Translations under genes and position numbers: made by a program
The notes under the pieces: model-generated
What the model saw: the letters and a program-made list of their open reading frames with translations, nothing else
The model's database searches: none
Told to the model about the DNA's origin: nothing
Part shown: one piece after another, positions 40,564 through 55,516 of the stretch
Layout: every line of letters starts with the position of its first letter
Numbering within the stretch: the first letter of the stretch is position 1
NCBI GenBank assembly: GCA_049522015.1
Contig: JBEKOG010000018.1
Span: 17,864-81,863 of the forward strand
From: Verrucomicrobiota bacterium
GTDB taxonomy: Bacteria > Verrucomicrobiota > Verrucomicrobiia > Limisphaerales > UBA11358
Reading direction: 5' to 3'
Length of the DNA stretch: 64,000 bases

Positions 40564-40639
40564 GGCTGGGTAGCTCAGTTGGTAGAGCAGAGGACTGAAA
40601 ATCCTTGTGTCGGCGGTTCAATTCCGCCCCCAGCCACCA
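40564..40639 (+). tRNA. tRNA-Phe (anticodon GAA)
   Basis: Hand-folded. Acceptor GGCTGGG/CCCAGCC, D-arm GCTC-AGTTGGTA-GAGC, anticodon stem GAGGA/TCCTT with loop CTGAAAA, T-arm GGCGG-TTCAATT-CCGCC, discriminator A, encoded CCA. Confidence 0.9.
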
Positions 40640-40641
40640 TC
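40618..40641 (+). repeat. attL core: left copy of the 24-bp direct repeat (3' end of tRNA-Phe)
   Basis: TCAATTCCGCCCCCAGCCACCATC at 40618-40641 is identical to 55493-55516. Confidence 0.8.
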
Positions 40642-40684
40642 TCCGATGCTTGGGCATCAATGAGTTGTGAGGAACCAAGTTGCA

Positions 40685-40706
40685 ACTGCCAGCAAAACTG
40701 CCAGCA
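40685..40706 (+). repeat. two tandem copies of the ACTGCCAGCAAA-type motif just inside attL
   Basis: aACTGCCAGCAAAACTGCCAGCAg read at 40685-40706. The same 12-mer recurs three times near attR (55311-55345), on the same strand. Confidence 0.7.
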
Positions 40707-40858
40707 GACGGCGGACTTGGTGAAGCTCGGGAACGACTCGCCAAAACCCGCTGAAACTCCGGCAGAACCTGCTGACGGGCACTTGGCCGCGCCGGATTGT
40801 GTAGGACTTACACAACGCGGACGCATCGCAGAATTACGCTGCTTCATGGAAAAAACAT

Positions 40859-41926
40859 ATGAAGCAACGATTCCGTCTTTATCGGCGCCACGGCATCTAT
40901 TACACACACGATGACCAAACCGGCAAACAGGCCAGTCTTGGAACCCGCGACCGTGGTGAAGCCTTCGAATTATTCAGCGCCAAAACCCAGGCACATCGGC
41001 AAGCGCATTTGAACCTTCGGCTCGCACGAACCTACCTGACGGCGACCGATCCGCTGATTGACAAGCGCAACTGGCAGACGGCAATGGAGGAACTGGCAAA
41101 ATCGAAACGCGGCACTTGGGGCGAGCGCTGGCAGCGTGCCATCAAAGACAAGTCATTTGATTGTCTTCGTGACATGACGATCCTTGAAACGCAGGGTGAA
41201 CACTTCCTGAAGGTGCTTCAGATCGGCACGGTTTCCACCAATGTGTATTTGCGCCGCATCCACAACTTTGCCTTGGACATGGGCTGGCTGCCCTGTCCAA
41301 TCCTTCCCAAACGTCAATGGCCGGCCGTGCGTTACAAGGAAAAACGGGCCATCACACGCGAAGAACACCTGGCCATATTGCAGAGGGAAAGGAATGACGA
41401 ACGGCGGGCCTTTTACGAAATGTGCTGGCATTTGGGCGGTTCACAAAGTGACATCGCCGCTTTGAAAGTTGAGGATGTTGATTGGGACGATCAGGTCATC
41501 AGCTTCTTTCGGAAAAAGACCAAGTCGGTTCAAATCATCCATTTTGGCGACGAGGTTGCGGCAATTTTGAACCGGCTGCCCGACCGGGGGCCGTTGTTTC
41601 CAAATTTCGGGCTGCTGGATGAAAAACATCGGGCAAGTTGGTTCCAAATGATTTGCCGCCGGACGGGGATTATAGGTGTATCCCTTCACTCCTACCGTTA
41701 TGCGTGGGCGGAACGCGCCAAGACCTGCGGCTATCCCGAACGCTTTGCCCAGGAAGCGCTGGGACACAACAGCAAGGCCATTCACCGTGCCTACGCCCGC
41801 AAGGCCAAGGTGAAGCTGCCGTCGCTTGAGGCTTACGAGAAGCGGGCGAGTGAAACTGAAATCATCCCCGTCCCGTTCCAGCGGGGAGTGGCGGTGGATC
41901 AAGCGGCTTTGGCGCTATACGCCTGA
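40859..41926 (+). CDS. tyrosine-type site-specific recombinase (integrase)
   Basis: 355 aa. The C-terminal catalytic region has HSYRYAWAERA (HxxR) and ALGHNSKAIHRAYAR (nucleophile Tyr). Sits next to the tRNA att site. Confidence 0.8.
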   Translation: MKQRFRLYRRHGIYYTHDDQTGKQASLGTRDRGEAFELFSAKTQAHRQAHLNLRLARTYLTATDPLIDKRNWQTAMEELAKSKRGTWGERWQRAIKDKSFDCLRDMTILETQGEHFLKVLQIGTVSTNVYLRRIHNFALDMGWLPCPILPKRQWPAVRYKEKRAITREEHLAILQRERNDERRAFYEMCWHLGGSQSDIAALKVEDVDWDDQVISFFRKKTKSVQIIHFGDEVAAILNRLPDRGPLFPNFGLLDEKHRASWFQMICRRTGIIGVSLHSYRYAWAERAKTCGYPERFAQEALGHNSKAIHRAYARKAKVKLPSLEAYEKRASETEIIPVPFQRGVAVDQAALALYA

Positions 41927-42238
41927 TGCGCGGGAGGGGTTGGACTGGCGTGGCTGGCCAGTCCGCCTTCGGGCGTTCTTGCGCCGCCAATGGGCACTGA
42001 TCGCGTCGGTGGCTTTCGCGAACCATTTTGCATCGCTGCGCAATGCGGTCAGGGTTGCCGTAAGAAAGAACTTCGGCGTGTTGGCGGGTGGATGACCGAG
42101 CGGACAGAGCAGGCCAGCGCCAACCAGGATCGGAATCTGATGGGGCTTGAAACCGAGATACCACGCCGTTTCAGCGGCCTGCAAGCGGGCCGGAAGGAGC
42201 GGCGCATTGAGAAATGAGTCCCGGTCGTCGTTTTTCAT
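41915..42238 (-). CDS. excisionase-like / HTH DNA-binding protein
   Basis: Inside ORF 41915..42256; ATG at 42238. LLPARLQAAETAWYLGFKPHQIPILVGAGLLCPLG resembles small HTH proteins found beside integrases. Function inferred from context. Confidence 0.5.
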   Translation of the reverse strand: MKNDDRDSFLNAPLLPARLQAAETAWYLGFKPHQIPILVGAGLLCPLGHPPANTPKFFLTATLTALRSDAKWFAKATDAISAHWRRKNARRRTGQPRQSNPSRASGV

Positions 42239-42278
42239 GGTGTCTGTTCTTAACAAGGGTGGATTGTTGGCTCTGTAA

Positions 42279-42536
42279 TTATCGCTGCCGGTTGGTAGGA
42301 CGCGTCCCGTGACAATTCATGGGAAACAAGTCGAGAATGGACACGCGCAGCACGGTGGCCAGACCTACGACTCCGGTGTCGGGAACCGAGATTTTACGGG
42401 TTTCCCAACGCGCGATCATGTCCCGCGTGACCCGGTAACCGGCTGTCTGGAGTTTTCGGGTCAAATCCACCTGGGTCCATCCGCGCTCACGTCGCAGGAG
42501 CCGGATTCGTTCTCCGATGATGTTGGTTCGTCTCAT
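42279..42536 (-). CDS. XRE-family HTH regulator (paralog 1)
   Basis: 85 aa, MRRTNIIGERIRLLRRERGWTQVDLTRKL.... The start overlaps the stop of the giant ORF. About 40 percent identical by eye to the ORF at 47726..48025. Confidence 0.7.
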   Translation of the reverse strand: MRRTNIIGERIRLLRRERGWTQVDLTRKLQTAGYRVTRDMIARWETRKISVPDTGVVGLATVLRVSILDLFPMNCHGTRPTNRQR

Positions 42537-53749: not shown

Positions 53750-53785
53750 CCCCAAAACAAAAACCCCGCACCTTGTGATGCGGGG
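53750..53785 (-). terminator. rho-independent terminator of the PEP-CTERM gene
   Basis: On the minus strand: CCCCGCA-tcacaagg-TGCGGGG followed by TTTTTGTTTTGGGG, 20 nt after the stop at 53806. Confidence 0.75.
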
Positions 53786-53805
53786 CTGGTGAAAGCGTTG
53801 TCGGG

Positions 53806-54483
53806 TTATTTCCGGCGGCGGAACAGCAACAGGCTCATGCTTCCCAGACCGGCCAGCGCCAGCGTGGAGGGTTCGGGGGCTGGCGTCACCACCATCAATG
53901 ATGGATCGTAACTAGAACCCATCTGCTCCGTTGCACTAACGACAGAATATTGGTCGGCGGAATAGGTGGCACCTGGATTCAGCAGCGTCCCATATTGCCA
54001 ATCCGACGAAATTGATGCGGTGTATGTGCCGGCCAGAAAGGTGATGGTGTCACCCGGGTTAAATGCACATTCATCGTTCCAGCCAAAGCTTAATGTCAGG
54101 GCATCAGCGCCACTGGGACCGCTATGAAAACTATAGAACTGCATCAGCCCATAGGTAATCCCAATAGAGTAGGGGTCGGTAATGTCTGTAACCGTTCCGC
54201 CTTGATTCAGCTCCAAGCCTCCACCGCTTACGGACACCGGATATCCCATATAACCAAGGGTAGTGCTGGAATCCATGACATTGGCGAATGAAATGCCAAA
54301 ATCATAGGCACTGAAAGAGCCTTCTGGCCCAACAGTAATGGTGTAATCGTTCAACAGCGAAACCTGCAGGCCGGTGCTGTCGGTGGTCATGTTCAATTGT
54401 AATTGTGCCTGCCCGGACAGACACGTCAGCATTGTTATTCCTGTGATAGTCGCGAACTGCTTGAAGTTTGTTTTCATAATCAT
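53806..54483 (-). CDS. PEP-CTERM-anchored secreted protein (cargo of the integrative element)
   Basis: 225 aa with an N-terminal signal. The C-terminus TPAPEPSTLALAGLGSMSLLLFRRRK is a PEP-CTERM signal. The region looks less GC-rich than its surroundings by eye. Confidence 0.7.
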   Translation of the reverse strand: MIMKTNFKQFATITGITMLTCLSGQAQLQLNMTTDSTGLQVSLLNDYTITVGPEGSFSAYDFGISFANVMDSSTTLGYMGYPVSVSGGGLELNQGGTVTDITDPYSIGITYGLMQFYSFHSGPSGADALTLSFGWNDECAFNPGDTITFLAGTYTASISSDWQYGTLLNPGATYSADQYSVVSATEQMGSSYDPSLMVVTPAPEPSTLALAGLGSMSLLLFRRRK

Positions 54484-54803
54484 ACCCGGTTAATGCTTTG
54501 GTCAGAAAATCAGCATAGCAGATGCCACTCGTGGGTTGGGTTGGATAATTAACAAGCCGGGTAATTGATAATGTTTACATGATGATTCCGTTGCGGGCTG
54601 CCCTCCTCAGGCGGGACGGAACAAGCGGCTGCACATTATTGGGGCATTCATTGTGTCAGAGAAAGCCAAAGCATACGAAGCTCAAACGACAAAATTTCCT
54701 TCCGCTTAAGTTTTGCGATTATTCCGTATGCGGCTGGGGCACGCCCCCGACACGGCCCGGAAGTTGAAAACGGGAGTCTACGTTCAAGCGGCTGCCAATT
54801 TGC

Positions 54804-55244
54804 TCAAGCGGCCTGGGCAAACACTTTCTCTTTCGCTTTGGCCCACGCGGCTGGCGTAAACTCTTTGATCTGGGTGATTTTTACCGCTGGTAAACGCGTG
54901 AACAAATCTTTCAAATAATCAAAGGGGTTGACGCCATGCCGCCGACAATTACCCAGCAACGTGTATATCACGGCACTGCGTTCTCCGGCATCGGGATGGC
55001 CGAAAAATAAAAAGTTCCTTTTTCCGAGGGCGCTGGGCCGAATCGCGTTCTCGATCAAGTTGTTGTCGATCTCCAGCGTGCCGTCTTCCACGAACCGTAT
55101 CAGTGCCTCCCACCGTTTCAGAGTGTAATCAATCGCCTGTCCAAGCAGACCTTGCGGTAAAGTTTTTCTCCGTATCAACTCCATTGCCCGGTGCAGCCGA
55201 GTCAATACCGGTTGCGCCTGCCACCCGCCATTCAAACAGCACAT
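54804..55244 (-). pseudogene. IS66-family transposase, C-terminal fragment only
   Basis: ...AIDYTLKRWEALIRFVEDGTLEIDNNLIENAIRPSALGKRNFLFFGHPDAGERSAVIYTLLGNCRRHGVNPFDYLKDLFTRLP is the conserved IS66 C-terminal region. The DDE catalytic body is absent. Confidence 0.75.
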
Positions 55245-55310
55245 CCCCGCCAGGCCGACTGTATGTCCAAAGATACCAGCAAAAACGGGTCATGGTTTTA
55301 TGGTTTTCGA

Positions 55311-55345
55311 CTGCCAGCAAAACTGCCAGCAAAACTGCCAGCAAA
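55311..55345 (+). repeat. three tandem copies of CTGCCAGCAAAA just inside attR
   Basis: ctgccagcaaaa ctgccagcaaaa ctgccagcaaa at 55311-55345, plus a degenerate copy ataccagcaaaaa at 55274-55286. Confidence 0.8.
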
Positions 55346-55492
55346 GGTGTAATAAAAGAGTAATGCGGGAGTTGTTTTAGAGTTTTGAAGGGGTAGTTAA
55401 AAGCTTGACGAAAGCGTCAAAACCTGCGATTTATCAGGGGTTGCAGCGTAAGTTCTGCAACTTGCGTTCTGGCGGGGACATCGGAAGTTTGG

Positions 55493-55516
55493 TCAATTCC
55501 GCCCCCAGCCACCATC
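55493..55516 (+). repeat. attR core: right copy of the 24-bp direct repeat (orphan tRNA-Phe 3' end)
   Basis: TCAATTCCGCCCCCAGCCACCATC. No tRNA body lies upstream of it. Confidence 0.8.

Follow-up and report, generated by a model that had tools for sequence, protein, structure and literature searches.

A tRNA-Phe-integrated element in a Verrucomicrobiota bacterium, probably a transfer-defective remnant of an integrative and conjugative element

The 64,000-nucleotide stretch of DNA analysed here (the window) spans positions 17,864 to 81,863 of contig JBEKOG010000018.1 in the assembly GCA_049522015.1 of a Verrucomicrobiota bacterium. It contains an intact tRNA-Phe(GAA) gene and, about 15 kb downstream, a partial copy of the 3' end of that gene; between the two lie genes for a tyrosine recombinase, a small Xis-like protein, a giant DarB-like methyltransferase-helicase, a TrbI/VirB10-like protein and a MOBF relaxase-helicase, followed near the right end by a PEP-CTERM protein gene and the stub of an IS66 transposase gene (Table 1). 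The flanking genes are chromosomal, with ThuA on the left and LptF/G and SDR on the right. An initial annotation, made from the sequence alone, had proposed that an integrative element occupies the 3' end of tRNA-Phe. The comparisons below bear this out and indicate that the element is very probably an integrated, transfer-defective remnant of an integrative and conjugative element (ICE), one of a very large family found in Verrucomicrobiota.

The last 22 nt of tRNA-Phe together with the following TC form a 24-mer, TCAATTCCGCCCCCAGCCACCATC, that has two exact copies in the window 14,875 bp apart, so that the insertion measures about 14,875 bp including one core copy. ARAGORN found no tRNA body upstream of the right copy. 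Further copies were absent from the window at up to 3 mismatches and from 100 dinucleotide shuffles, in agreement with the exact, tRNA-bounded repeat initially described. The integrase open reading frame (ORF) starts at 40859, which is 218 nt past the left repeat, again as first reported. ARAGORN and Rfam identified two tRNAs in the window, tRNA-Phe and tRNA-Ala(CGC) at 58152-58227 on the minus strand, and the Rfam scan of the window returned no other structured RNA. The GC fraction within the element is 0.55-0.59, like that of the flanks, and drops to 0.50-0.52 between 53.5 and 55.5 kb.

Unoccupied versions of the site, which the initial annotation had suggested looking for in relatives, were found by scanning JGI metagenome contigs with the predicted junction (tRNA body, core and right flank), a search that yielded 11 loci. 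Related loci and contigs are designated below by L numbers. In L018, L020, L021, L024 and L025, intact tRNA-Phe runs straight into what, in the window, lies right of attR. LptF/G and then SDR follow in these empty-site relatives at 88-97% nucleotide identity to the window; in L018, L020 and L024, tRNA-Ala is present as well after LptF/G and SDR, and the 50 nt past the core match the attR flank of the window completely or almost so. The empty site (attB) corresponds to window position 40641 joined to 55517 and reads ...GGCGGTTCAATTCCGCCCCCAGCCACCATCCTACGCTCTCC... Because relatives hold this empty site, with intact tRNA-Phe directly followed by the attR flank, LptF/G and SDR, the interval is an insertion. 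The left junction (TCCGATGC...) is element DNA and the right flank is native chromosome, the assignment originally made, since the attB flank of the relatives matches the attR flank of the window. The 24-mer is not a dispersed repeat, and the relatives do not carry a repeat-free version of the interval, the two outcomes that had been named as contrary to an insertion. A repeat of the tRNA end thus bounds the element, a recombinase gene adjoins it and the site is unoccupied in relatives, as in tRNA-linked islands generally.

The native character of the right flank had first been argued from text shared with the region behind tRNA-Ala. Such text exists, but it amounts to only 12 nt (ACCATCCTACGC), four of which are the tRNA's own ACCA, plus a nearby 19-mer. 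The argument itself held, in that tRNA-Phe in the more distant relatives L019 and L026-L028 is followed by the same kind of hairpin as tRNA-Ala in the window. The hairpin after tRNA-Ala (58089-58157, minus strand) reads CACCATCCTACGCCCG...CGGGCGTAGGATGGTG, and its 5' arm includes the ACCA end of the tRNA; a hairpin was likewise noted at 55517-55560, right of attR. The 19-mer, GCTACGGATGGCAGGCCAG, occurs exactly three times within 2.6 kb, at 55540-55558 (+), 55681-55699 (+) and 58040-58058 (-). Each copy is intergenic and near a tRNA or attR, and none is expected by chance.

A query with the DarB-like protein returned at least 579 loci in species-representative genomes, and the backbone of this family was drawn from the best 80 of them by tblastn with a panel of proteins and by ARAGORN. 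Almost all of these 80 loci belong to metagenome-assembled genomes of Verrucomicrobiota/Limisphaerales from peat, bog, palsa, lake and groundwater; the identity of their DarB-like proteins is 62-85%, and several loci per genome are often present. The secretion part of the backbone encodes a VirB4-like protein (902 aa), proteins of 139, 266, 355 (TrbL/VirB6-like), 219 and 299 aa (CagX/VirB9-like), and TrbI, with a TrbC/VirB2 gene further upstream in L035 and L119. TrbI is followed by p192, p152, cargo, a 99-aa HTH protein, the TnpV-like protein, the DarB-like protein, an 85-aa HTH protein, the Xis-like protein, the integrase and the tRNA, the cargo and the 85-aa HTH gene being present only sometimes. 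In all 44 loci with enough flank, the VirB9-like gene lies immediately upstream of trbI. Relaxase homologues number more than 2700, and nearly all of those listed are 914-940 aa long. In L029, L030 and L118 the relaxase gene is preceded by divergent genes for a small protein and a ParA-like (CbiA) ATPase, next to which L030 and L118 carry a gene for a TrwB-type coupling protein, and is followed in all three by the gene for a 118-aa protein. Compared with these loci, the gene order of the window is the family backbone minus its middle.

The missing middle can be placed exactly. The window runs collinear with L031 and L035 through ...CGGGTGG, along the antisense 3' end of their VirB9-like gene, and from GTGGCCGGCCA... 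it is collinear with the relaxase gene of L029 from codon 33 onward; the GTGG in between is common to both parental arrangements. Because this GTGG is shared by the two sides, what reads as the GTG start codon of the 903-aa relaxase ORF is the deletion junction, which lies only 58 bp from the start of trbI. Residue 2 of the ORF aligns with residue 33 of TrwC and residue 35 of pKM101 TraI, and intact relatives are 32-33 aa longer. Homologues, including the 97%-identical P0002 (935 aa), start with MVTAKTQYNLKNAREYFEEHLCVGDYYDEGQRV, a segment that is absent from the window; the missing N-terminus was not found in any of the three upstream frames, as either an upstream or a frameshifted copy. In TrwC, the corresponding segment carries the catalytic tyrosines Y18 and Y26. 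The window relaxase retains the TrwC domain and the histidine motif HLHTH (HxH), but the N-terminal 32 residues with the tyrosine motifs are gone. One deletion removed the genes from VirB2 to most of VirB9, the coupling protein gene, the ParA-like gene and the relaxase N-terminus. The origin of transfer (oriT) of MOBF systems normally lies in the intergenic region upstream of the relaxase gene, and the deletion would also have taken this region; no oriT was identified in the family.

TrbI/VirB10-like is the sole type IV secretion core gene remaining, and neither VirB4 nor a coupling protein was found among the ORFs of the element. A relaxase with catalytic tyrosines, a coupling protein and VirB4-type ATPase or mating-pair genes, which mark a self-transmissible ICE, are thus all missing. 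The element is a deletion derivative without a working transfer module, and its mobility genes are relics because the relaxase lacks its N-terminal 32 residues and VirB4, the coupling protein and the other secretion genes are not there. The gene content initially listed is present, with the amendments that the relaxase ORF is 5'-truncated and that the supposed TrbI operon is a three-gene remnant; likewise, the relaxase and TrbI genes taken as mobility genes exist, but as remnants.

A second copy of the same element was found in L031 and L033, where it is 98.2% identical to the window from the first base of tRNA-Phe to the start of trbI (10 kb). Its flanks differ, with a gene for a 428-aa integrase 5' of the tRNA and a second element in tandem after attR, and so does its lesion: the relaxase is reduced to its C-terminal 597 aa, part of the VirB9-like gene is retained, and an extra gene for a 1135-aa helicase/methylase is present. 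The window and L031 copies are independent decay products of a more complete ancestor. Identity to the attR of L031 and L033 stops at CCA, and the essential core is on this ground the 22 tRNA nucleotides. The second element of L031 (860-2350), which is related and has a 360-aa integrase, begins right after the first attR. In another contig, L004, the chromosome, tRNA-Phe, integrase and 3' part of the DarB-like gene show 100% identity with the window as far as about 43.1 kb; over L004 13500-20861 (window 43100-50430), identity is then 67-85% with the window and about 93% with an ICE that carries secretion genes and targets tRNA-Cys. L004 could be a real recombinant, possibly the complete ancestor at tRNA-Phe, or an assembly chimera. 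The same chromosomal site in a close relative (L022 and L023, flank 95-97% identical) is used by a different element, whose attR (L022 about 1800-1880; L023 about 6020-6095) holds a tRNA-Phe 3' fragment of about 48 nt that reaches back to the anticodon loop, and tRNA-Phe is therefore a hotspot for multiple elements.

Table 1. Features of the tRNA-Phe element, in window coordinates
Feature	Position	Strand	Evidence or remark
tRNA-Phe(GAA), intact, integration target	40564..40639	+	ARAGORN; Rfam tRNA, 73 bits
attL core: last 22 nt of the tRNA + TC	40618..40641	+	exact 24-mer
Two tandem 12-bp repeats AACTGCCAGCAA/G, putative arm-type sites (P' arm)	40684..40708	+	43-67 nt inside attL
Tyrosine recombinase, 355 aa, full length	40859..41926	+	Pfam Phage_integrase 9e-10; PHROG integrase 9e-25
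Xis-like protein, 107 aa, candidate recombination directionality factor	41915..42238	-	91 homologues, no Pfam match
HTH_31/XRE-type regulator, 85 aa	42279..42536	-	Pfam 2e-7
DarB-like methyltransferase + SF2 helicase, 1587 aa	42533..47296	-	PHROG 10089
TnpV-like small protein, 94 aa	47362..47646	-	Pfam TnpV 2.8e-5, under curated cut-off; position conserved in relatives
HTH_3 regulator, 99 aa	47726..48025	-	Pfam 9e-6; conserved in relatives
Conserved protein (p152), 152 aa, downstream of trbI	48394..48852	-	no family match; synteny in 50 related loci
Predicted lipoprotein (p192), 192 aa, MKTLYLIPLLFLTAC..., downstream of trbI	48879..49457	-	sequence; conserved synteny
TrbI/VirB10-like protein, 355 aa	49454..50521	-	Pfam TrbI 2.4e-18; start MKPRDF as in homologues
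Deletion junction, GTGG microhomology	50580..50583		three-way comparison: L031/L035 (secretion side), L029 (relaxase side)
MOBF (TrwC-type) relaxase-helicase remnant, 903 aa	50580..53291	+	Pfam TrwC 1e-76, from profile position 26
118-aa protein after relaxase	53257..53613	+	same place in L029, L030, L031, L118
Replaced segment (PEP-CTERM gene + IS66 stub)	53626..55275		homology break
PEP-CTERM protein	53806..54483	-	Pfam
IS66 transposase C-terminal stub	54804..55244	-	Pfam
Three tandem 12-bp repeats ACTGCCAGCAAA, putative arm-type sites (P arm)	55309..55345	+	148-184 nt inside attR
attR core: partial tRNA-Phe 3' end	55493..55516	+	exact 24-mer

The integrase was aligned with its family (26 members, 35-59% identity). 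K220, H277, R280, H303 and Y312 are invariant or nearly so, with the HxxR, GH and Y motifs conserved, and the Arg-I box, GLRxSE in XerA, is G-[GA]-[SA]-Q-[ST]-D in all 26 members, with S/Q (GGSQSD) at the canonical Arg-I position. Because the whole family shares it, the missing canonical Arg-I is probably a family trait and not a lesion. Q196 and R218, which lies 22 residues downstream of Q196, are both invariant in the alignment, and by analogy with other integrases R218 or R163 may serve as the substitute catalytic arginine. In the IntCTnDOT subgroup, another arginine, located further downstream, is reported to take over the function of the missing Arg-I (PMC8138268, citing Kim et al. 2010).

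The gene next to the integrase had been initially described as excisionase-like. Such a gene does exist, but the right ORF is the 107-aa one on the minus strand. The ORF first chosen (41990-42217, plus strand, 75 aa) was rejected; it is of low complexity, has no family match and is overlapped by the conserved minus-strand ORF. The latter lies beside int in about 30 related loci, and its conservation among its homologues indicates a real gene. An AlphaFold model of the 107-aa protein (pLDDT 78) predicts a wing-helix core with a long C-terminal helix, and its fold matches, weak but consistent in theme, are to MerR/BldC, the Pukovnik Xis and the RdfS excisionase, none with E <= 0.001; the model is compatible with a candidate recombination directionality factor.

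Tandem 12-bp repeats flank the core on both sides within the element, and we read them as putative arm-type integrase sites. The same tandem motif, A[AC][GC]TGCCAG[CT][GA]AA repeated twice, is found equally far from the tRNA in 12 of the 13 relatives that have a homologous integrase (56-69% identity) at tRNA-Cys or tRNA-Ser. In L043, at tRNA-Cys, the arm is almost identical to that of the window and the core is different. In L120 (17140-17600), another 12-bp tandem repeat, ACGGACACCAAA in three copies, stands before a core of the tRNA-Cys type and is presumably the arm of a different, neighbouring element.

The DarB-like protein matches PHROG 10089, 'DarB-like antirestriction', over residues 2-1579 (E=0, 1749 bits), and alternative upstream starts would extend it to as many as 1723 aa. 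Pfam MTase, ResIII, SNF2 and Helicase_C matches are weak, and NVPF and DEAH motifs are present in the sequence. A sequence search for relatives of solved structure returned none. An assignment of this protein to a defence system was set aside, PADLOC giving only weak partial DrmD, mad2 and MTase matches as against the full-length DarB-like match.

The right end of the element has been remodelled. Homology to L029 (95.7%) and L031 (97.6%) ends at 53625 and returns at 55276, and in place of the intervening PEP-CTERM gene and IS66 stub the relatives have a PurA-like gene of 118 aa and a 91-aa gene. The PEP-CTERM protein varies in length among near-identical strains, being 208, 223 or 225 aa long.

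Contigs matching the window at 100% identity come from many independent peat and bog metagenomes. The LptF/G, ThuA and integrase proteins of the window are also identical to proteins of an NCBI metagenome-assembled genome labelled Verrucomicrobiota bacterium, in which ThuA and the integrase bear consecutive accession numbers. Occupancy of the site was read from the 23-24 longest contigs for each of the exact ThuA, SDR, LptF/G and integrase proteins, and all contigs that reach the site show it occupied; among those read by exact ThuA, SDR and LptF/G sequence, none had an empty site in the same strain. The int and Xis-like genes are intact, as are the two att cores and the conserved 12-bp arm repeats. 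Because the integrase and Xis-like genes and both att sites have been kept, the element may, judging from these parts, still be able to excise. One metagenome contig, L016 (MEGAHIT, ERZ27249829), starts at the first base of the attR core (its 1-24; window 55493) and is 100% identical in the flank, a start that hints at an assembly-graph branch between attR and another junction.

Taken together, these features suggest the following history. A circular ancestor would have carried an attP site holding the last 22-24 nt of tRNA-Phe, and the tyrosine recombinase would have joined it to the 3' end of the chromosomal tRNA-Phe gene, probably assisted by the arm sites that flank the core and by the small Xis-like protein. 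Integration would have rebuilt an intact tRNA at attL and left the 24-bp partial copy at attR. A later, single deletion at a 4-bp microhomology, to which the junction attests, fused the VirB9-like tail to relaxase codon 33, and oriT was presumably lost in the same event. The right end was reshaped by insertion and truncation of IS66 and by acquisition of the PEP-CTERM gene, as the homology break indicates. The resulting element is unable to conjugate or to nick its own DNA.

Some observations weigh against a transfer-defective remnant with this history. The expected attP junction (...GGAAGTTTGGTCAATTCCGCCCCCAGCCACCATCTCCGATGC...) had 0 exact matches in one IMG/VR scan, and a look-up by exact integrase sequence, covering the longest contigs, gave just the ThuA-tRNA-Phe context. 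The canonical first catalytic arginine of the integrase is absent. The reading frames of the 903-codon relaxase remnant and of the trbI trio remain uninterrupted, so that either a recent deletion or a retained function is possible. The complete ancestor at tRNA-Phe was not recovered among the related contigs, L004 being a recombinant or a chimera. An alternative that we consider unlikely is that the element is still mobile as an integrative and mobilizable element (IME), excised by Int and Xis and transferred by a sibling ICE of the same cell, which would supply the conjugation machinery and the relaxase. The intact recombination functions, the abundance of sibling ICEs with 78-81% identical relaxases in several copies per genome, the presence of the same element at 98% identity in L031 with both flanks different, and the start of L016 exactly at the attR core, which would follow from attB or another junction being present in that sample, all fit such transfer. 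However, the region upstream of the relaxase, the usual place of a MOBF oriT, is deleted, attP was found in neither the IMG/VR scan nor the longest-contig look-up, and no empty site was seen in the same strain, the flanks of the attB contigs being only 88-97% identical to the window. About as unlikely is a domesticated remnant, in which the TrbI, lipoprotein and 152-aa trio, the DarB-like protein, or both now serve the host. This would explain the intact ORFs and the fixation, and it agrees with the retention of trbI, p192, p152 and the DarB-like gene in both the window and L031, independent deletion derivatives that have lost the upstream secretion genes, with all ORFs open and with the element's presence in every contig of the strain that was read; yet a recent deletion would leave the ORFs open just as well, identity between the two derivatives is 98%, and TrbI alone has no known function when the rest of the secretion core is absent.

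Two further explanations have almost no probability. A prophage or phage-like island might be imagined from a tyrosine integrase at a tRNA and a giant protein that matches a phage (P1 DarB-like) family, but Pfam, NCBIfam and PHROG scans found no capsid, terminase, tail or lysis genes among the ORFs tested, and the backbone is that common to elements with type IV secretion and a relaxase, which effectively refutes it. The same very low standing applies to the formal possibility that nothing was inserted and that an ancestral interval was deleted in relatives, the repeat being coincidental. The repeat is the 3' end of the tRNA with an integrase adjoining it, the 98%-identical element in L031 has different flanks on both sides, and siblings at tRNA-Cys and tRNA-Ser share its arm architecture, observations that refute this view; that the empty sites of the relatives arose by precise deletion of an ancestral region is very unlikely because the tRNA end is duplicated. 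We conclude that the window holds a tRNA-linked genomic island, real but ordinary, that is neither a functional ICE nor a prophage and is probably not a functional IME either, and for which a transfer-defective ICE remnant is the best explanation.

ICEs with tyrosine integrases that target tRNA genes include ICEMlSymR7A (tRNA-Phe; IntS/RdfS), ICEclc (tRNA-Gly) and PAPI-1/pKLC102 (tRNA-Lys). Like these elements, that of the window is integrated at the 3' end of a tRNA gene, which a short direct repeat restores, and has its integrase gene by attL; a small gene for a putative Xis or directionality factor is present, the family carries a MOBF or other relaxase, a coupling protein and a type IV secretion system, and the Xis-like protein has RdfS among its weak fold matches. 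It differs in a separate integrase lineage without the canonical Arg-I, in a host from the phylum Verrucomicrobiota, and in that this copy keeps only the TrbI/VirB10-like gene and a truncated relaxase of the transfer functions. The Yersinia high-pathogenicity island is a decayed ICE remnant relative to ICEEc1/ICEKp1. There, too, the tRNA-linked integrase and att repeats were kept and the conjugation module was lost by internal deletion, whereas for the window the relatives reveal directly where the deletion joined and what the two parental arrangements were, and the cargo is minimal, a single PEP-CTERM protein.

Individual components permit similar comparisons. The relaxase aligns with TrwC (R388) and TraI (pKM101) over about 260 residues (E about 1e-39) and has the HLHTH motif and a C-terminal AAA_30 helicase in common with them, but unlike TrwC it starts at the equivalent of TrwC residue 33. 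As in phage P1 DarB, the giant protein, with its full-length PHROG 10089 match, has an N6-adenine methyltransferase-type motif fused to an SF2 (DEAH) helicase; unlike P1 DarB it sits on an ICE backbone, and an anti-restriction role is putative. The 'polyvalent proteins' of conjugative elements are a further known group of this kind. The integrase resembles IntDOT of CTnDOT, as described in the article cited above, in that the first arginine of the pentad is absent at the canonical position and, in the window's family, the invariant R218 lies downstream of Q196. No specific sequence relationship between the two was detectable, the role of R218 being a proposed one, and the target is a tRNA 3' end with an identical core, unlike the CTnDOT-type coupling sequences.

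The window element itself is a standard tRNA-linked island that has become a transfer-dead ICE remnant with an exactly mapped deletion. It points to a dominant family of conjugative elements in uncultured Verrucomicrobiota, with its at least 579 loci in species representatives, through which much of the gene exchange in peat and lake communities probably runs. A search of the literature for a described Verrucomicrobia ICE family returned nothing relevant in what is searchable, and the family, which is large, seems undescribed there. Tentatively, and with somewhat more doubt than confidence, we suggest an abundant, undescribed ICE family of peat and freshwater Verrucomicrobiota whose integrases, in every member examined, lack the canonical Arg-I and have an invariant Gln and a downstream invariant Arg in its stead, and whose tRNA-Phe, tRNA-Cys and tRNA-Ser cores have been switched with the 12-bp arms nearly kept. 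Its size and the unusual active-site signature of its integrases add to the interest. The related copies form a comparative set for integrase biology, with occupied and empty sites, tandem arrays, hybrid copies, different tRNA cores alongside the same arm sites, and an active site without canonical Arg-I. If this reading of the family is right, it would offer a natural series for the reprogramming of core specificity independently of arm binding.

The chromosome around the element is also variable. A block of about 20 kb (20250-40510) directly 5' of tRNA-Phe is absent from relatives; it encodes four GFO/IDH/MocA oxidoreductases, two AP_endonuc_2 proteins, ApbE, a 3-keto-disaccharide hydrolase and ThuA, and no integrase or repeat was seen at its edges. 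The 5' flank of the tRNA joins the window at about 20245 in L024 and at about 18129 in L019 and L026-L028. At the edge of the variable block, 19232-20113 encodes an NHL-repeat protein with a PEP-CTERM anchor, and its gene contains a 120-nt tandem repeat (19292-19912) of about 5 copies. On the other side, about 4 kb past the right end of the window, L005 (1-1975) carries genes for an IS91-type Y2 transposase and a 304-aa integrase (Phage_int_SAM_4), which represent another mobile element nearby.

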